This document shows positions 10,913 to 56,910 of a stretch of 64,000 nucleotides of DNA, one piece after another (the stretch's first letter is position 1; each line of letters begins with the position of its first letter). The stretch is from Flavobacteriales bacterium (GTDB taxonomy: Bacteria; Bacteroidota; Bacteroidia; Flavobacteriales_F; PHOS-HE28). Where the stretch lies: assembly GCA_023957375.1 (NCBI GenBank), contig JAMLHB010000003.1, forward strand, positions 5,830 through 69,829. Direction: 5' to 3'. The translations under genes and the position numbers were made by a program. The notes beneath the pieces are model-generated. The model ran no database searches, was not told the DNA's origin, and worked only from the letters and a program-made list of their open reading frames with translations.

Positions 10913-10977
10913 TTTGTCCGATGTCTTATGTCCTATGCGGTACGCAATCGCGCATAGGACATAAGACATCGGACAAA
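10913..10977. repeat. Perfect 27 bp inverted repeat (hairpin, 11 nt loop) between rng and recX
   Basis: 10913-10939 tttgtccgatgtcttatgtcctatgcg, loop gtacgcaatcg, and 10951-10977 cgcataggacataagacatcggacaaa, which is the exact reverse complement. Confidence 0.9.
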
Positions 10978-26059: not shown

Positions 26060-26108
26060 GCGGGGCGCAAAGGTGGGGATAGTTCCGGGTTCGCAGGGCG
26101 TGGTTCGT

Positions 26109-26232
26109 GGTTGTCAAGGCGTGGTTCGCAGTTGTCAGTTGTCTGTTGTCAGGCTTTCTGCGACCAGCCTCCGACCACTGACAACCGACAACTGACAACT
26201 GACAACCGAAAACTGATCACTGAGAACTGCCC
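26109..26232. repeat. Heptamer repeat array with inverted partner
   Basis: gttgtcaaggcgtggttcgcagttgtcagttgtctgttgtcagg ... ctgacaaccgacaactgacaactgacaaccgaaaactga. Confidence 0.7.
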
Positions 26233-29777: not shown

Positions 29778-31514
29778 TCACGGAGCGTTCCTCCCGAAAA
29801 ACACAAACCCGTTCTTGCGGTATAGCTCCTGCAATCCGGGGATGGCCGCCACTTCTTCCGCGCTGGTCACCTTGCACATGACGTACACTGGCCTGCCCAC
29901 GTTGCCGGTGAGCAGCCAATTTTCGCTCTGCACGCGGGAGTCGGTGATGGGCGGCATGCGCGTGTAGAACCACTGCGCGTAGCTCTTGTAGCCCTTGGTC
30001 ATCACGTAGCAGGTTTCGCCCTGCCGCTGCTGGAAGAATTCCACGGCCGCACGCTGCGAATACCCTTCGATGCGGTTGATGAAATAGTACAGCGTGATGG
30101 TGACGAACAGCGCCGTGCCGCCGAACACCGCCACGATGCCGCTGCGGTATTCGCGTTTGGCGAAGAAGCGGTGGCCCAGATAGAGCACCACGCACATCCA
30201 CACGCCCGCCAACGCTTCCCAGCCGCTCCAATGCACTTCCGCCATCAAGTTGCCTTGCGCGAAGGGGTCGCTCTTCAACAACGGAATGATCCATTCCGGG
30301 TGCATGCCGATGAACGGCAACACCAACGTGACCAGCGCGAAGAGCGTGCCGATACCGCCCATCAGCAGCCGCGACCACAGCGTGGCCCTCCCGCCGTTCC
30401 ATAGCCGCTCCAATTGCAGCGCCGCGAGGAAGGTGAGCGGGAAGTAGCACAGGCTGCTGTAGTGGACGATCTTGGTCTTGACGATGCTGAAGAGGATGAA
30501 CACGACCCAGAAAAGGATGAGGAGCCACTTGCGGTAGTTGTCCGTTGTCCGTTGTTGATTAGCTCCCTCAGCGGTCTCCCGAAGGGGACCCTGAGGCAAA
30601 GGGTGCATACAAGGTCCGCTGCGCGAGACCTTGATGGAGCTAGTTCCCCTGACTATCTCCTGCAGGGCAAAGACCGATGCGGGGAAGCAGCCGATGAGCA
30701 GCACCACGAAATGGTAGCCGAAGAAGCCGCCGTGGCCGGCATCCTCGGTGCTGAGCATGGCCACCTGCCGCCAGAAGAAGGCGGTGAAGAACACGGGGCC
30801 GTTGCGCAGCAGGTCCGCGCCGAACCACAGGCCGGGCACTAACAGCAGCACGCCCAGCATCAACAGCACGCGCGGGATGGAAACGTAGAGGCGGAACCGG
30901 TTCCACACCCAGTACACCAGCGCGCACAGCGCGGGGATCAGCACGCCCACCGGCCCTTTGGTGAGCACGGCCAGCCCCATCCAAAGCCCGGCCATGGCTG
31001 CGGAAAGGTTCTTCCTCCGGGCTGAAAGACCCGCGCTGGCCGGTGTGTCGGTGCTGCGGATGAACCCCAGGAAGCCGAGGAAGATGAAGAAGTTGAACCA
31101 GGGATCGATGATGCCGCTGCGGAAGTAGAGGTTTGGCAGGATGGAGCCGATATAGGCCAGCACCCAGAGCAGCCCGAAGCTGCGGTTGCGCAGCCGCGTG
31201 CCGATGCGGAACAGCACCAACAGCGTGGCCACGCCGCACAACGCGTTGGGCAGGCGCGCCGCAAACTCGCCCACGCCAAACACCGACATGCTGAGCGCCT
31301 GCATCCACATAAAGAGCGGCGGCTTCTCATAGAACGGCACATAGCCGATCTGCGGCTGCAGCCAGTTGTGCGTGGCCAGCATCTCCCGCGCGATCTCCGC
31401 GAAGTTGATCTCGTCCCAATCGAACAGGTGTACCGCACCCAAGCCGGGCACAAAGAGCAGCAACGCCAACAAGGCGATCAGCCACGAGATGCTGCGGTTG
31501 GACAGGCCCTTCAT
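29778..31514 (-). CDS. GT39/GT83-family glycosyltransferase (ArnT/PMT-like), carrying an in-frame repeat insertion
   Basis: MKGLSNRSISWLIALLALLL...DEINFAEIAREML...YFEKPPLFMW is ArnT/PMT_2-like. A ~42 aa insertion (RGTSSIKVSRSGPCMHPLPQGPLRETAEGANQQRTTDN) is encoded by the palindromic element. Confidence 0.75.
   Translation of the reverse strand: MKGLSNRSISWLIALLALLLFVPGLGAVHLFDWDEINFAEIAREMLATHNWLQPQIGYVPFYEKPPLFMWMQALSMSVFGVGEFAARLPNALCGVATLLVLFRIGTRLRNRSFGLLWVLAYIGSILPNLYFRSGIIDPWFNFFIFLGFLGFIRSTDTPASAGLSARRKNLSAAMAGLWMGLAVLTKGPVGVLIPALCALVYWVWNRFRLYVSIPRVLLMLGVLLLVPGLWFGADLLRNGPVFFTAFFWRQVAMLSTEDAGHGGFFGYHFVVLLIGCFPASVFALQEIVRGTSSIKVSRSGPCMHPLPQGPLRETAEGANQQRTTDNYRKWLLILFWVVFILFSIVKTKIVHYSSLCYFPLTFLAALQLERLWNGGRATLWSRLLMGGIGTLFALVTLVLPFIGMHPEWIIPLLKSDPFAQGNLMAEVHWSGWEALAGVWMCVVLYLGHRFFAKREYRSGIVAVFGGTALFVTITLYYFINRIEGYSQRAAVEFFQQRQGETCYVMTKGYKSYAQWFYTRMPPITDSRVQSENWLLTGNVGRPVYVMCKVTSAEEVAAIPGLQELYRKNGFVFFGRNAP
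30533..30660. repeat. MITE-like palindromic element inserted in-frame in the GT39 gene
   Basis: Heptamers gttgtccgttgtccgttgtt, terminal inverted repeats gattagctcc...ggagctagttc, and internal hairpins cctcagcggtctcc-cgaag-gggaccctgagg and caaggtcc-gctgcgcg-agaccttg. Confidence 0.6.
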
Positions 31515-31626
31515 GCGGTGCCGAAGGTAGCGGCGTAAAACGCGTTGCCTTTCCGCAGCGGGCCGGCATTAGGACACGAGCGTGGACGCTCGCGTCAGAG
31601 ATGGGATGGATTCAGCGTGGTCAGCG

Positions 31627-32734: not shown

Positions 32735-32955
32735 AGCCTTCATGCGGTGCCGAAGGTACCGGCGTAGACCGCCTTGCCTTTCCGTAGCGGGCCGACATTA
32801 GGACACGAGCGTGGACGCTCGCGTCAGAGATGGGGACACTGAGCGAAGGTAAAGGGCCTTCATGCAGTGCCGAAGGTAGCGGCGTAAAACGCGTTGCCTT
32901 TCCGCTGCGGGCTGGCATTAGGACACGAGCGTGGACGCTCGCGTCAGAGATGGGG
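32735..32955. repeat. Two tandem extra copies of the ~105 bp GT39 5' leader (hairpin + start codon region)
   Basis: Both copies match 31503-31620 (cttcatgcggtgccgaaggtagcggcgtaaaacgcgttgcctttccgcagcgggccggcattaggacacgagcgtggacgctcgcgtcagagatggg) with few mismatches. Confidence 0.85.
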
Positions 32956-34555: not shown

Positions 34556-34635
34556 TTGGCAAAGATGGGGGAGTTGCCACCAACGGGATGAACAGATCAC
34601 GCAAAGTATGGATAACTTACGCGAAGCCGCGAAGG

Positions 34636-34785
34636 GGGTACTCCAAGAACGCTTGTGGCAGGCACTTGGCAAATACGATGCCTCACGCGAAGCCGCGAAG
34701 GCGCGAAGGGGGTACTCCAAGAACGCTTGTGGCAGGCACTTGGCAAATACGATGCCTCACGCGAAGCCGCGAAGGCGCGAAGGAG
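34636..34785. repeat. Tandem direct repeat, ~75 bp x2, with downstream inverted partial copy
   Basis: gggggtactccaagaacgcttgtggcaggcacttggcaaatacgatgcctcacgcgaagccgcgaaggcgcgaag occurs twice. ccttcgcggcttcgcgtg lies downstream at 34830. Confidence 0.8.
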
Positions 34786-34893
34786 TACTCCTTGATTCGT
34801 GTGAAATACTCCACCTTCCCTGGATGGAACCTTCGCGGCTTCGCGTGCCTCTTCCCCGCCAGCCTGTATGCTTCGCGTGCCTCTTCCCCACCT

Positions 34894-42579: not shown

Positions 42580-42635
42580 GAGGTACCCGGCAACAAGCAG
42601 ACCGCCTCCCTCTTTCCTCCCCACCTTTGCCCCAT

Positions 42636-42707
42636 GCAGGAACTGATCGAACAAGCGTGGGCAGACCGCTCCCTGTTGAAGGACCCCGAGGTGATCCGCG
42701 CCATTTA
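42636..42707 (+). pseudogene. Duplicated 5' fragment of dapD (first ~23 codons, then a stop) left of the vapBC insertion
   Basis: atgcaggaactgatcgaacaagcgtgggcagaccgctccctgttgaaggaccccgaggtgatccgcgccatttag nearly matches dapD 43557-43628. The upstream ttgccccatgcag motif is also duplicated. Confidence 0.8.
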
Positions 42708-42834
42708 GGGCGTGTTGGAGCACCTGGACAAAGGCTCGGATACAGGGAGTAGCGGCGAGATCCTGATGATGGGCAACCTCCGCAAACCATTCAAGCTGAA
42801 TTACGTATGTTTTTATTACATTCGCACGTAATCC

Positions 42835-43490: not shown

Positions 43491-43556
43491 CCCGGGGCCG
43501 CTAGCCGCCATGTTGTACTTCAATGCCCGGTCCCGTATCATGGCCAACTTTGCCCC

Positions 43557-44390
43557 ATGCAGGAACTGATCGAAAAGGCGTGGGCAGACCGCTCCCTGTT
43601 GAAGGACCCCGAGGTGATCCGCGCCATTGAAACCGTGGTGGGCCAGCTGGACCGCGGGGAGCTGCGCGTGGCGGAACCAACCGACGGGATTCCGGGTCAA
43701 GCCCGGAATGACGGTGCGTGGAAAGTGAACGAATGGGTGAAAAAGGCCGTGCTGCTCTATTTCCCCATCCGCAAGATGGAGGTATTGGAAGCAGGCCCGC
43801 TGGAATGGCACGACAAGATCCCCCTGAAGCATGACTATGCGAAGCTGGGCGTGCGCGTGGTGCCCCACGCCATCGCACGGCATGGAAGCTACCTGGCCCC
43901 CGGCGTGATCCTGATGCCGAGCTATGTGAACATCGGCGCCTACGTGGACGAGGGCAGCATGGTGGATACTTGGGCCACGGTGGGCAGTTGCGCCCAGATC
44001 GGCAAGGGCGTGCACCTGAGCGGCGGCGTGGGCATCGGTGGCGTGCTGGAACCCGTGCAGGCCGCGCCGGTGATCATCGGCGACGGCGCCTTCATCGGCA
44101 GCCGCGCCATTGTGGTGGAGGGCGTGCATGTGGGCCGCGAGGCGGTACTGGGCGCCAACGTGGTACTTACCGCCAGCACGCGCATCATCGACGTGGCCGG
44201 GCCGGAACCCAAGGAGATGAAGGGCTACGTGCCGCCGCGCAGCGTGGTGATCCCCGGCACCGTGCCCAAGCGTTTCCCCGCCGGGGAGTACGGCGTGCCC
44301 TGTGCATTGATCATCGGGCAGCGCAAGGAAAGCACGGACCGGAAAACGAGCCTGAACGAGGTGTTGCGGGAGTTCGATGTGGCCGTGTGA
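43557..44390 (+). CDS. dapD: 2,3,4,5-tetrahydropyridine-2,6-dicarboxylate N-succinyltransferase
   Basis: MQELIEKAWADRSLLKDPEV... followed by hexapeptide-repeat left-handed beta-helix (GAYVDEGSMVDTWATVGSCAQIGKGVHLSGGVGIGG). Confidence 0.8.
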   Translation: MQELIEKAWADRSLLKDPEVIRAIETVVGQLDRGELRVAEPTDGIPGQARNDGAWKVNEWVKKAVLLYFPIRKMEVLEAGPLEWHDKIPLKHDYAKLGVRVVPHAIARHGSYLAPGVILMPSYVNIGAYVDEGSMVDTWATVGSCAQIGKGVHLSGGVGIGGVLEPVQAAPVIIGDGAFIGSRAIVVEGVHVGREAVLGANVVLTASTRIIDVAGPEPKEMKGYVPPRSVVIPGTVPKRFPAGEYGVPCALIIGQRKESTDRKTSLNEVLREFDVAV

Positions 44391-44393
44391 TCG

Positions 44394-44496
44394 GTTGTCA
44401 GTTGTCAGTTGTCAGTTGTCAGTTGTCGGTTGTCGGTTGTCGGTTGTCGGTTGTCTGTTTCTGGCGCCCCACCCTTACAACGAGCAACTGACAACG
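44394..44496. repeat. Heptamer tandem array (GTTGTCR x ~9) with inverted partial partner, between dapD and the response regulator
   Basis: ggttgtcagttgtcagttgtcagttgtcggttgtcggttgtcggttgtcggttgtctg ... caacgagcaactgacaacgaacaacc. Confidence 0.85.
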
Positions 44497-44520
44497 AACA
44501 ACCACCCTAAAGGAAGAAAA

Positions 44521-52271: not shown

Positions 52272-53462
52272 GTGCCCAAGCAGTTCCTGATCATCCAAAC
52301 CGCCTTCCTCGGCGATGCCGTGCTGGCCACCGGCTTGGCGGAGAAGCTGCATGCGTGGTACCCGGATGCCGCCATTGACCTGGTGGTGCGCAAGGGCAAC
52401 GACGGGTTGTTCAAGGGTCATCCCTTCCTGCGCAAGCTGCACGTTTGGGACAAGAGCCAAGGCAAGAACCGCGACCTCTTCCGACTGGTGCACGCATTCC
52501 GCCGCCAGCGGTACGACCATGTGATCAACGCGCAACGCTTCTTCAGCACCGGGCTGATGGCGGTTCTTTCCGGAGGGAAGGAGACGGTTGGTTACGATAA
52601 GAATCCATTGAGCTTGTTCTTCTCGCGCCGGGTGAAGCACGAGATCCCGGATTGGCGCGTGCTGCGCGGAAAGGCCGCCGGCACCGGTGTGCATGAGATG
52701 GACCGGTTGAATGTGCTGATCGAACACCTCACCGATGGAAAAAGGCCGTTGCCAAGGTTGTACCCTTCGGAGGCGGACCGGGCACAGGTGGCAGGGCTAC
52801 TGGGGCCTCAGGGTCCCGAGGCGGAGGCCCTGAGGGAGCAACCTACCCGAACTCCCGCAGGGTCTCTCGGAGAGGACCCTGCGGACATCCCTCCTCAGGG
52901 TCCCGAAGCGGAGACCCTGAGGGAGCGATCGGGGGCGGAGACCCTGAGGGAGCAATCGGGAACGAGGACCCTGAGGGAGCAGCAATACATCACCATCGCA
53001 CCGGCATCGGTGTGGTACACCAAGCAATGGCCCGCAGGGAAATGGATCGAGCTGATCCAGCTGCTGCCACCGGAACAGCGCGTACTACTGATCGGCGCGC
53101 CGGGTGACGTAACGCTGTGTGATCACATCGCTAAGGAAGCCGGGCGCGGAGAAGTGTTGGCCGGCAAACTGAGCCTGTTGGCCACTGCGGCGTTAATGGA
53201 AGGCGCCATCATGAACTACGTGAACGACAGTGCGCCGCTGCACATCGCCAGCGCGATGAATGCGCCGGTGACAGCGATCTTCTGCAGCACGGTGCCCGCT
53301 TTCGGCTTCGGGCCGCTGCGCCCCAACGGGCGGATCGTGCAACGCGAGGAAACCCTCTACTGCCGCCCTTGCGGCCTGCACGGGCACAAGGCATGTCCCG
53401 AGGGGCATTTCAAATGTGCGTTGGAGGTCCTACCAACCCAGCTGGCCGCCCCGATGCCGTAG
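52272..53462 (+). CDS. GT9 glycosyltransferase (LPS heptosyltransferase family) with a ~60 aa in-frame repeat-encoded insertion. Apparent GTG start.
   Basis: FLIIQTAFLGDAVLATGL ... APGDVTLCD ... VNDSAPLHIASAMNAPVTAIF are heptosyltransferase motifs. The inserted segment is LLGPQGPEAEALREQ...TLREQ. Confidence 0.75.
   Translation: MPKQFLIIQTAFLGDAVLATGLAEKLHAWYPDAAIDLVVRKGNDGLFKGHPFLRKLHVWDKSQGKNRDLFRLVHAFRRQRYDHVINAQRFFSTGLMAVLSGGKETVGYDKNPLSLFFSRRVKHEIPDWRVLRGKAAGTGVHEMDRLNVLIEHLTDGKRPLPRLYPSEADRAQVAGLLGPQGPEAEALREQPTRTPAGSLGEDPADIPPQGPEAETLRERSGAETLREQSGTRTLREQQYITIAPASVWYTKQWPAGKWIELIQLLPPEQRVLLIGAPGDVTLCDHIAKEAGRGEVLAGKLSLLATAALMEGAIMNYVNDSAPLHIASAMNAPVTAIFCSTVPAFGFGPLRPNGRIVQREETLYCRPCGLHGHKACPEGHFKCALEVLPTQLAAPMP
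52797..52990. repeat. Array of CCTCAGGGTCCC-GAAG-CGGAGACCCTGAGG palindromes and half-copies, inserted in-frame in the GT9 gene
   Basis: Units at 52806-52840, 52856-52883 and 52892-52923 (perfect 10 bp stem), plus half-units ggagaccctgagggagc x2. Confidence 0.85.
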
Positions 53463-54732: not shown

Positions 54733-54848
54733 ATTGTCAGTTGTCAGTTGTCGGTTGCCAGTTGTCAGTTGTCAGTTGTCCGTTGTCCGTTGTTAGGTGT
54801 TAGACGGTACGTCCGCCTGACAACGGACAACTGGCAACCGACAACTAC
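54733..54848. repeat. Heptamer tandem array with inverted partner between convergent genes
   Basis: gttgtcagttgtcggttgccagttgtcagttgtcagttgtccgttgtccgttgtt ... cctgacaacggacaactggcaaccgacaac. Confidence 0.85.
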
Positions 54849-55373: not shown

Positions 55374-56846
55374 ATGGCCCGCGACACCTCATACACCGTA
55401 GACGCTTCCCGCCTGCACGGCGTGCTGGACCAACCGCTCTTTGTGGCGGCCGCGAAGGTGGCCGAACGCATGGGCGTGAAGGCGTACACCATTGGCGGTT
55501 ATGTGCGCGACCTGCTGTTGGGCAAGCCTTGCAAGGACATCGACATCGTATGCGAAGCCGACGGCATTGCGTATGCCCAGGCCGTGGCGCAGGAATTGAA
55601 TGCGGGCCACGTGCATGTCTTCAAGAATTTCGGCACGGCCATGTTCATGCTGGGCGACGTGCAAGTTGAATTCGTGGGGGCGCGCAAGGAGAGTTACAGC
55701 CGCAACAGCCGCAAGCCGGAGGTGGTGCCCGGCACCATCCGCGACGACCAGGAGCGGCGCGACTTCACCATCAATGCCTTGGCCATCCCACTCAACGCGG
55801 AAGACCGCGGGCAGCTGGTCGACCCGTTCTACGGCGTGCACGACCTAGAGCGCGGCATCATCCGCACCCCGCTGGCACCGGACATTACCTTCAGCGACGA
55901 TCCGCTGCGCATGCTCCGTGCCATCCGCTTCGCCACGCAGTTGGGCTTCTTCATCGATGCGCCCACCTTCGAGGCCATCCAGCGGAATGCCGAACGCTTG
56001 GACATCATCAGTGCCGAGCGCATCCACACCGAGCTGAACAAGATCATCGGGGCACCGGTGCCCAGCATCGGCTTCAAGCTGCTCTTAGACAGCGGCCTGC
56101 TGGTGCGCTTCTTCCCCGAAATGGTCGACCTGCTGGGCGCGGAGGAAAAATTCGGCATCGGGCACAAAGACAACTTCTACCACACCATCCAGGTGCTGGA
56201 CAACGTGGCCAAGCACAGCGACGACCTGTGGCTGCGCTGGGCCGCCGTGCTGCACGACATCGCCAAGCCGCGCACCAAACGCTTCGAGCAGGGCCGCGGC
56301 TGGACCTTCCACGGGCATGAGGACAAGGGCGCGCGCATGGTGCCCGGCATCTTCCGCCGCATGAAGCTGCCCTTAGACGAGCAGATGCGCTTCGTGAAAA
56401 AGCTGGTGGCCCTGCACCTGCGCCCCATCGCCCTCACCAAGGAGGAAGTCACCGACAGCGCCGTGCGCCGCCTGCTCTTCGATGCCGGCGACGACATCGA
56501 CGCGCTGATGATCCTCTGCAAGGCGGACATCACCAGCAAGAACGAGGCCCGCAAGAAGCGCTACTTAGCCAACTACGAGCTGGTGCTGGAAAAGCTGAAG
56601 GAAGTGGAGGAAAAAGACCGTGTGCGCAACTTCCAGCCGCCCATCACCGGCGAGGACATCATGGGCGCCTTCAACATCCCGCCCTGCAAGGCCATCGGCG
56701 ACATCAAGACGGTGATCAAGGACGCGATCCTCGACGGCAGGATCCACAACGACCGCGCCGCCGCTTGGCCGTTGATGCTGGAGGAGGGGAAGAAGTTGGG
56801 GCTGACGGTGGTGAATGGGATGGAGGGGCCGGGGAGTAGTTCGTAG
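55374..56846 (+). CDS. cca: tRNA nucleotidyltransferase (CCA-adding enzyme/poly(A) polymerase family) with HD domain
   Basis: GGYVRDLLLGKPCKDIDIV (PolA head), RRDFTINAL, and HD motif HDIAKP. Confidence 0.8.
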   Translation: MARDTSYTVDASRLHGVLDQPLFVAAAKVAERMGVKAYTIGGYVRDLLLGKPCKDIDIVCEADGIAYAQAVAQELNAGHVHVFKNFGTAMFMLGDVQVEFVGARKESYSRNSRKPEVVPGTIRDDQERRDFTINALAIPLNAEDRGQLVDPFYGVHDLERGIIRTPLAPDITFSDDPLRMLRAIRFATQLGFFIDAPTFEAIQRNAERLDIISAERIHTELNKIIGAPVPSIGFKLLLDSGLLVRFFPEMVDLLGAEEKFGIGHKDNFYHTIQVLDNVAKHSDDLWLRWAAVLHDIAKPRTKRFEQGRGWTFHGHEDKGARMVPGIFRRMKLPLDEQMRFVKKLVALHLRPIALTKEEVTDSAVRRLLFDAGDDIDALMILCKADITSKNEARKKRYLANYELVLEKLKEVEEKDRVRNFQPPITGEDIMGAFNIPPCKAIGDIKTVIKDAILDGRIHNDRAAAWPLMLEEGKKLGLTVVNGMEGPGSSS

Positions 56847-56910
56847 TTCGGCGTTCGGAGTGCTCACACCACCAACCACGAACTACGCCCTAACAACGGA
56901 CAACTGGGAT
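56836..56910. repeat. GTAGTTCG repeat with inverted partner plus GGACAAC unit
   Basis: gtagttcgtagttcggcgttcgg ... cacgaactacgccctaacaacggacaactgg. Confidence 0.55.

Follow-up and report, generated by a model that had tools for sequence, protein, structure and literature searches.

The 64-kb stretch of DNA analysed here (the window) is part of contig JAMLHB010000003.1 of a Flavobacteriales metagenome-assembled genome (MAG; GCA_023957375.1) and has a G+C content of 60.4%. We studied a repeat-bearing segment inside a gene on its minus strand (positions 29778–31514), an intact open reading frame (ORF) encoding a 578-aa GT39/PMT_2 (ArnT-like) membrane glycosyltransferase. The protein matched the Pfam family PF13231 (PMT_2; E = 1.1e-15), was 100% identical to a protein of an NCBI 'Flavobacteriales bacterium' MAG, and had thousands of homologues. 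The segment occupies a hypervariable loop, residues 287–327 (41 aa; minus strand, 30534–30656), which lies between the conserved motifs FALQE and (Y)RKW and is free of stop codons. Two kinds of repeat are present in the loop: a run of 2.7 copies of the heptamer GTTGTCC (plus strand, 30537–30555; 100% match according to TRF), read on the coding strand as ..QQRTTDN, and an 83-bp palindromic doublet (minus strand, 30560–30642). Peptides encoded by the insert include SSIKVSR and SGPCMHPLPQGPLR. The insert was found again in independent ENA assemblies, which, together with the identical NCBI MAG protein, rules out an assembly artefact. A preliminary description of the window had treated the segment as one composite element, made of heptamers, terminal inverted repeats (TIRs) and internal hairpins, and similar to a miniature inverted-repeat transposable element (MITE).

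The doublet is composed of two inverted units similar to repetitive extragenic palindromic (REP) sequences, with their heads pointing outward and their tails facing each other. Unit H1 (plus strand, 30562–30596) consists of the head GCTC (30562–30565) and the palindrome CCTCAGCGGTCTCCCGAAGGGGACCCTGAGG (30566–30596); its hairpin reads CCTCAGCGGTCTCC-CGAA-GGGGACCCTGAGG on the plus strand, i.e., CCTCAG-C-GGTCTCC/CGAA/GGGGACC-CTGAGG, and the unit is of the CCTCAG type. A 13-nt spacer, CAAAGGGTGCATA (30597–30609), separates H1 from the CCATCA-type unit H2 (minus strand, 30606–30641), in which the head GCTC is followed by CATCAAGGTCTCGCGCAGCGGACCTTG. The H2 hairpin (30610–30633) has the form CAAGGTC-N10-GACCTTG, and its stem contains a compensatory change from G:C to A:T. 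On the coding strand, the whole element reads GCTC-CATCAAGGTCTCGCGCAGCGGACCTTG, 13 nt, CCTCAGGGTCCCCTTCGGGAGACCGCTGAGG-GAGC. The heptamers at the start of the segment and both internal hairpins were thus as previously described. The inverted termini noted earlier are real, being perfect over 7 bp (TAGCTCC, 30560–30566, and GGAGCTA, 30636–30642) and extendable to outer arms of 11 nt with 91% complementarity, but they are the heads of two inverted REP units rather than TIRs. In the copy at the orthologous locus L006, the outer inverted repeat is extended (GGGGAACTAGCTCC / GGGAACTAGTTCCCC) by GTTCCCC, which in the window lies at 30643–30649 (plus strand) and has a degenerate partner.

The whole-doublet pattern had a single match in the window, and 100 shuffles yielded none. 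The fold z-scores of the 146-nt doublet region were −3.0 (RNA) and −2.9 (DNA), and the mRNA segment carrying the doublet folded at −58 kcal/mol. The target-site duplication (TSD) looked for following the preliminary description was not seen by eye at the element borders in the window or in the orthologous loci L001, L005, and L006. Rfam gave nothing relevant at E ≤ 10 for positions 30300–30900, and no family covered the units in seven loci.

We searched 185,579 species genomes for further copies with the pattern CCTCAGGGTC-N6-14-GACCCTGAGG, requiring perfect palindromes. At least 118 genome loci matched exactly. Among the matches listed, most belonged to Bacteroidota (Mucilaginibacter, Flavobacteriales MAGs, Roseivirga, Sediminibacterium, Emticicia, and Cryomorpha), a few actinomycete hairpins looked unrelated, and several genomes, such as Mucilaginibacter sp. 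UYCu711 and MAG 341R, were matched on many separate contigs. The window itself contains one doublet and one cluster, with four clear units, all within ORFs: one in the GT39 gene and three in a GT9 (heptosyltransferase-like) gene (52272–53462). The GT9 cluster (plus strand, 52806–52985) is in frame, comprises at least five units or half-units, including a 27-bp tandem repeat of 2.8 copies, and is read as PQGPEAEALREQ...PQGPEAETLRERSGAETLREQSGTRTLREQ. Its palindromes at 52806, 52855, and 52893 belong to the same family as the H1 hairpin, a relationship that had been recognised from the outset. GT9 orthologues of other species carried units at a similar place (L009:2015–2085, L066, L120, and L074, the last with five copies of a 69-bp repeat).

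Units were 28–32 nt long; the two of the window doublet are imperfect palindromes of 30–35 nt. When units were oriented by their internal asymmetry (GGTC-T..G-GACC), a conserved head appeared on the 5' side, GT[CT]C in low-GC Bacteroidota (n = 88) and about GCTC ([GT][CT]TC consensus) in high-GC MAGs (n = 35), and the 3' flank was unconserved. Such a one-sided head on a palindrome indicates a REP-like architecture.

Doublets were also detected outside the window. A strict pattern requiring both heads had no matches in the metagenome collection; a looser one matched eight loci, of which L135 was an orthologous GT39 gene. At L129, L133, and L136, which are other places altogether, both units were identical in sequence to those of the window, down to the A:T stem variant and an extra G in GACCGCTGAGG, and the spacers were different. 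Near-identical units were found in L134, and further doublets in L141 and in the Mucilaginibacter loci L020, L043, L088, and L117. The search for copies suggested by the preliminary description therefore supported its view that the loop contains dispersed, non-autonomous, repeat-derived DNA resembling a mobile element and inserted in frame. The L136 contig from activated sludge (UOUJ01000296.1, L136:1–600) additionally carries an intergenic array in which a 183-bp period is repeated three times; each period has one CCATCA-type, one CCTCAG-type, and two CCGCAG-type units (four REP units per period), and the array resembles a bacterial interspersed mosaic element. The gene upstream of it takes its stop codon from a REP unit.

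Units of the family bracket genes for RayT, a REP-associated tyrosine transposase. The protein encoded at L054:6609–7181 (Mucilaginibacter) matched the full NCBIfam model NF047646 'REP-associated tyrosine transposase' (E = 3.5e-21, 75.6 bits), and a PDB sequence search with this protein returned weak matches to IS200-type TnpA only (E ~0.6). With tblastn, its homologues were detected directly beside units in L034, L104, and L049, and as a remnant in L127. A database search with the L104 protein yielded 236 homologues at E ≤ 1e-10, many of which had been named 'REP element-mobilizing transposase RayT' by JGI. These proteins were 190–199 aa long, with the motifs NHIH and YIHHNP in L054 and NHLH and YMHANP in L104. 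In total, RayT was bracketed by family units in five distinct contexts: L054, with variant units on both sides, and the high-GC Flavobacteriales loci L104, L137/L139, L140, and L141. In the high-GC loci, one to three CCATCA-type units (CCATCAGGGTCTC.CG.AG.GGACCCTGATG), the type of H2, were located upstream of the gene and one CCTCAG-type unit (CCTCAGGGTCC..GAGACCCTGAGGG), the type of H1, was located downstream. The downstream units read CCTCAGGGTCCCTTCGGAGACCCTGAGGG. The loop sequence of H2, GCGCAGC, recurred in the upstream unit of L140 (CCATCAGGGTCTCGCGCAGCGGACCCTGATG) and in a CCTCAG-type unit of L071. In L141, doublets without RayT were made up of a CCATCA unit, 15 nt, and a CCTCAG unit.

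In order and orientation, the two units of the window doublet agree with those that bracket RayT in the high-GC loci and with the RayT-less doublets of L141. This makes the element similar to a REP doublet forming a hairpin (REPIN) rather than to a classical MITE. Judged by its sequence, the doublet corresponds to the two ends of a 'REPtron' joined without the gene, which is a REPIN by definition (PMC3337134).

Several other features were observed at the RayT loci. A decayed RayT remnant with 27 alignable aa, bracketed by a CCATCA-type and a CCTCAG-type unit, was present at L127:5920–6180, in the same MAG as the intact RayT of L104. A DDE_3 transposase gene (L137:2608–3372) followed immediately downstream of RayT in three independent assemblies (L137, L138, and L139). 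In L137 and L139, the called start of RayT lay within the third upstream REP unit.

We interpret the segment, with a probability of roughly 80%, as a REPIN-like doublet of a Bacteroidota RayT/REP family that lies in a hypervariable loop, beside a heptamer run that is older and unrelated to it. This interpretation draws on direct observations of the anatomy of the doublet, its family membership, the association of the family with RayT, its dispersal and in-frame occurrence in many genes, and the presence or absence of the doublet in orthologues. The doublet has the structure of REPs and REPINs and their association with RayT; it is not extragenic, and it lacks the TSD of a MITE. Its mobilisation by RayT we infer from the distribution of the copies.

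The heptamers and the palindromes proved to be separable. The window contains 24 near-matches to the heptamer family, against 0.07 expected, and long arrays at 26129–26229, 44394–44459, and 54734–54846. In all eight sequenced orthologous loops, (N)GACAAC heptamers stood directly before TAC CGC AAG TGG, and most ingroup proteins showed heptamer-coded peptides (QLTTDN and similar). As close orthologues carry heptamers with or without the palindromes, the run is older than the palindromes and independent of them. We counted co-occurrence in ~407 kb of high-GC DNA (the window plus high-GC loci), which contained 74 units and 32 heptamer arrays. Just three of the 74 units had a heptamer array within 100 bp, and all three belonged to the orthologous GT39 locus. 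Co-occurrence is therefore peculiar to this locus, and the proposed single family of composite elements uniting heptamers and palindromes had to be abandoned.

Heptamer arrays elsewhere in the window form inverted pairs, such as (GTTGTCN)n ... (NGACAAC)n, at 26088–26229, 44394–44502, 54734–54846, 56838–56904, and 10913–10977. These regions also hold other heptamers (GGTTCGN and TGTCCTA/CATAGGA). The inverted pairs form long hairpins that, where we inspected them, lie right against a start or stop codon; terminator-like or recombinogenic roles are possible.

The history of the loop was assessed by aligning 37 GT39 orthologues, building a tree without the loop, and comparing the DNA of eight orthologous loops. 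The outgroups (~60–65% identity) and some ingroup members possessed a repeat-free loop of 14–15 aa from FALQE to RKW, and the outgroup loops held no precursor sequence of the insert. In the outgroups, the loops were rich in arginine (LLRPTRSGDSDRNDHRRW). Loops in the closer clade ranged from 24 to 95 aa and differed strongly in content. The absence of the insert from outgroup orthologues agrees with the earlier suggestion of a loop insertion of ~42 aa without a stop codon; the loop is indeed stop-free and 41 residues long, but the net gain over the outgroups is ~27 aa. In all 37 aligned orthologues, the reading frame continues through the loop and into the conserved sequence downstream.

The doublet was present in the window protein and in the orthologous proteins P0002, P0003, P0005, and P0010, and absent from P0004 and P0006, which are nested among them. 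At the DNA level, the sequence upstream of the heptamers varied among the eight loops, and the palindromic doublet was common to those of the window, L001, L005, and L006. Its 13-nt spacer was conserved across the orthologous GT39 copies, whereas doublets at other loci have different spacers. The shared spacer argues for a single insertion and against independent insertions at the same site. Between the window and L005, the doublet was 92.6% identical, compared with 80–86% for the flanking coding DNA and 70–75% for third codon positions. The L003 locus had flanks 96% identical to those of the window and a wholly different loop, which contained other heptamers between the arms of a different 9-bp inverted repeat. 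In the L001 loop, a 48-bp unit (the palindrome plus GAGCTAGTCAACAAC) was present in four tandem copies. The L010 loop held a complete inverted heptamer hairpin resembling the intergenic ones of the window. At least four unrelated repeat families have landed in this single GT39 loop. The sequence comparison suggests that the doublet was inserted once and was then rapidly lost, replaced, or recombined. As a hint only, the number of families suggests that a repeat or hairpin already in place may draw in further insertions and not just permit them.

Two of the additional repeats in GT39 loops were seen in several proteins. A hairpin element with the palindrome CCCCTCCCCCAAGGAGAGGGG, read as PSPKERG or SPREKG, occurred, in other species, in the loop at L007:10001–11815 and in P0008, P0015, P0016, P0018, and P0020. 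The loops of P0019 and P0021 held a 'PLSVLDCARTDK' element.

An AlphaFold2 model of the GT39 protein, built with the 37-sequence alignment, had a mean pLDDT of 77 and a pTM of 0.81. Residues 292–320 had pLDDT values <50 and formed a coil between helices 279–289 and 315–344; the loop is thus predicted to be disordered. When hydrophobic segments are counted from the C-terminal soluble domain backwards, the loop falls probably on the cytoplasmic side. Viewed most simply, the insert is a tolerated passenger, and we infer that the extra peptide is neutral for the protein.

REPs and REPINs are usually treated as extragenic. To see where the family resides, we determined whether exact units fell in ORFs of at least 200 codons. 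Among the matches listed, this was the case for five of 92 units in low-GC Bacteroidota loci and for 26 of 37 exact units in high-GC (0.50–0.66) MAG loci. Because high-GC DNA yields long spurious ORFs, the 17 distinct covering ORFs were scanned against Pfam. In-frame domains were identified in 14 of them, which rules out spurious antisense frames for these; the three without confirmation were in L060, L068, and L127. The domains were metallophosphatase (three ORFs), GT9 (three), XdhC (two), and, in one ORF each, DnaE, HtrA-like protease, MiaB-like radical SAM, ABC-F, alpha-L-fucosidase, and MmeI-type. Units were translated as PQGP..TLR or SGS..DPEG, representing two stop-free frames, and both orientations occurred. 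A predominantly extragenic location thus holds in low-GC Bacteroidota and fails in high-GC Flavobacteriales MAGs, including the window, where the copies are intragenic. As units sit in many unrelated domain families, glycosyltransferases are no special target, contrary to the emphasis initially placed on envelope glycosyltransferases; the in-frame units in DnaE, the HtrA-like protease, XdhC, and ABC-F illustrate the point. In this small sample, the intragenic fraction is near coding density, which suggests that insertion is weakly selected against and not targeted.

The MmeI-type ORF is a restriction-modification gene of the MmeI family (L122:652–3762) with a REP unit in frame. A DUF3800-VIII RNA (Rfam, 45.6 bits) was detected ~850 bp downstream of it (L122:4612–4673).

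Under the REPIN-like interpretation, events at the GT39 locus probably proceeded as follows. The (GTTGTCC)n run is ancestral to the clade of close orthologues and changes by slippage. By analogy with known systems, RayT would bind the hairpins on single-stranded DNA and copy or move the doublet, which would have entered the GT39 loop once. Hairpin binding and mobilisation have been shown experimentally for proteobacterial REP/RayT and IS200/IS608 systems, and RayT/IS200-type transposition leaves no TSD. Its survival is probably owed to a disordered loop that the protein can do without and to the lack of stops in two of the three frames of a unit, whichever strand is read. In close relatives, the insert was later amplified in tandem, as with the four copies of the 48-bp unit, or replaced by other repeats. 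A broader proposal, which we advance tentatively and hold to be possible rather than probable, is that high-GC Flavobacteriales harbour a RayT-driven REP/REPIN family that is largely intragenic and seeds stop-free, disordered segments of 10–30 residues in the loops of housekeeping proteins, where they are amplified in tandem (48 bp × 4 in GT39 and 69 bp × 5 in GT9) and swapped.

Two alternatives concern the origin of the insert. The segment might be a classical MITE, that is, a single composite of heptamers, TIRs, and hairpins derived from an insertion sequence (IS) with a DDE transposase and moved by cut-and-paste with a TSD. Outer inverted repeats of 7–14 bp (TAGCTCC/GGAGCTA in the window and the longer pair in L006), a size of ~83–95 bp with no coding capacity of its own, and the DDE_3 gene adjoining RayT in L137–L139 would fit such an origin. 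We nevertheless regard it as highly improbable, given that no flanking direct repeat was seen, that the supposed TIRs are heads carried by every single unit of the family, and that the heptamers are older, separable, and do not accompany units elsewhere. The gene associated with the units, in five independent contexts, is RayT, a Y1/HUH transposase and not a DDE enzyme; the strict doublet search of the metagenome collection gave nothing, and no parent IS with matching ends was seen in any fetched locus. The resemblance to MITEs put forward in the preliminary description was accordingly not retained. A purely local origin, by slippage and hairpin-templated duplication without transposition, would leave the similar palindromes elsewhere to convergent bias or to a shared DNA-binding or methylation site. 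Slippage is evident in the family, both in differing heptamer copy numbers and in the tandem repeats of L001 (48 bp × 4), the GT9 gene (27 bp × 2.8), L074 (69 bp × 5), and L136 (183 bp × 3). It accounts poorly for identical units of 26 and 35 nt with the same idiosyncratic variants at unrelated loci with different spacers, for units that have a directional head and bracket RayT genes, and for the lack of a precursor in the outgroup loops; we find a local origin very unlikely.

The insert could also have been kept for a function, as a linker or interaction loop of the protein, as an mRNA hairpin affecting stability or translation, or, through its heptamers, as a phase-variation switch. In favour of a function are the higher conservation of the doublet (92.6%) than of flanking third codon positions (70–75%), the stable mRNA fold (−58 kcal/mol, z = −3), and the combination of 7-bp repeats, which are not multiples of three, with a host gene that modifies the envelope. 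Against this, conservation tracks the DNA palindrome, units elsewhere are translated in two frames and both orientations, and the loop was swapped wholesale in the relative with 96% identical flanks. The loop is also predicted to be disordered, and the hosts of other units include unrelated cytoplasmic enzymes. For a switch in particular, 2.7 heptamer copies are too few for efficient slippage, and every one of the 37 orthologues reads through. We therefore consider retention for function very unlikely, and return to the REPIN-like doublet as the preferred interpretation.

Some observations weigh against this interpretation as well. The patchy distribution of the doublet among orthologues requires several losses or recombination, and mobility is deduced from distribution. 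A clean filled/empty pair with exact breakpoints was not found among the GT39 orthologues, because close relatives lacking the doublet carry other sequence there. The head, GCTC/GTYC, is unlike the GTAG or CGTC tags of the described REP superfamilies (PMC3733652). The RayT matches fell just below curated cut-offs (75.6 versus 80 for NCBIfam and 20.6 versus 23 for Pfam Y1_Tnp), and no RayT gene was found in the 64-kb window, to which that search was confined. The intragenic fraction comes from a biased sample, namely perfect palindromes among the matches listed.

The closest parallels are the REP-RAYT/REPIN systems of Pseudomonas fluorescens and Escherichia coli (PMC3116915, PMC3337134), in which a REPIN consists of two inverted REPs and a spacer and RAYT genes are flanked by REPINs (PMC3337134). 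Shared features are short imperfect palindromes inverted around a spacer and able to form one long hairpin, a conserved flank on one side, units bracketing a single small Y1/HUH RayT gene, the coexistence of singlets, doublets, and arrays, and the absence of TSDs. The present family differs in its head (GCTC/GTYC instead of GTAG), in its host phylum (Bacteroidota), and in that copies in high-GC Flavobacteriales are mostly intragenic and translated, whereas classical REPINs are extragenic. In the classification of Quentin et al. 2018 (PMC6006769), RayT subclass 2.6 (Bertels group 5), which is specific to Bacteroidetes, has the motifs NH[LIV]H and YIH[QN]NP and a length of ~179 aa, and 'atypical secondary structures', which recur at other genomic sites, flank its genes. 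By motif and length, the RayTs found here (~180–200 aa, carrying NH[LIV]H together with a YIH[QN]NP-like motif) resemble this mostly Bacteroidetes subclass, and they share gene-flanking hairpins with further genomic copies; YMHANP in L104 and YIHHNP in L054 deviate from the motif given there (PMC6006769).

Intragenic REPs and Rickettsia palindromic elements (RPEs) are already known (PMC3733652, PMC10969869). Like the units described here, RPEs (Ogata et al. 2000, as summarised in PMC10969869 and PMC3733652) are in-frame palindromes in many unrelated housekeeping genes, and their translated extra peptide is apparently compatible with protein function. RPEs are reported to be ~100–150 bp long, alphaproteobacterial, in some cases CGTC-tagged, and without a dedicated transposase, whereas units here are 30–35 nt long and linked to RayT (PMC10969869, PMC3733652). 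The resemblance is one of behaviour only, as in-frame intragenic palindromes, the window host being a Flavobacteriales MAG. The GTAG/CGTC-tagged REPs (Di Nocera et al. 2013, PMC3733652) are likewise tagged palindromes, often in dimers, of which a minority lie in ORFs, sometimes at the same site in orthologues, with clusters encoding tens of residues. Here, the tag is different, the stem measures ~10–13 bp, compared with 8–9 bp in CGTC families, and the intragenic fraction is apparently much higher (PMC3733652).

The case is a new example of a known phenomenon, of interest mainly for what appears to be a proteome-wide intragenic spread in one lineage: units that bracket RayT are translated within many conserved genes of uncultured activated-sludge and freshwater Flavobacteriales. 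To our knowledge, no transposase is known for the RPEs, which are the best-known palindromes that are translated. The intragenic family, if real, would parallel the RPE phenomenon, with a link to RayT, and would steadily supply new peptide sequence. A single loop displaying insertion, tandem amplification, and wholesale replacement makes a tractable natural system, in which one could ask by what route RayT-type elements get into coding DNA and are maintained there, and what share of disordered bacterial loops stems from selfish DNA. In practical terms, inserts of this kind inflate the length of proteins, give rise to spurious 'variable regions', and disrupt MAG protein assemblies and alignments. 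The heptamers have a parallel of their own in the cyanobacterial short tandemly repeated repetitive sequences, which reportedly are tandem 7-bp repeats abundant throughout the genome, often arranged as inverted intergenic arrays, and are said to have small palindromic mobile repeats beside or within them. The phylum and the heptamer (GTTGTCN) are different here, and in the ~407 kb examined the palindromes have no general association with heptamer arrays.

Finally, the window contains further repeats. A repeat of ~100–120 bp is present in three copies with 94–96% identity (31504–31605, 32737–32834, and 32853–32954), one of which extends over the GT39 start codon and the region upstream of it. 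It had no match in Rfam and includes the hairpin GACGCGAGCGTCCACGCTCGTGTC; a similar hairpin, GCGAGCGTCCACGCTCGT, was found in L136. A 109-bp direct repeat (42621–42729 and 43544–43652) has copies ~900 bp apart that are 90% identical. At 34620–34791, a 74-bp tandem repeat of 2.3 copies (96% identical) contains runs of the octamer CGCGAAGG.

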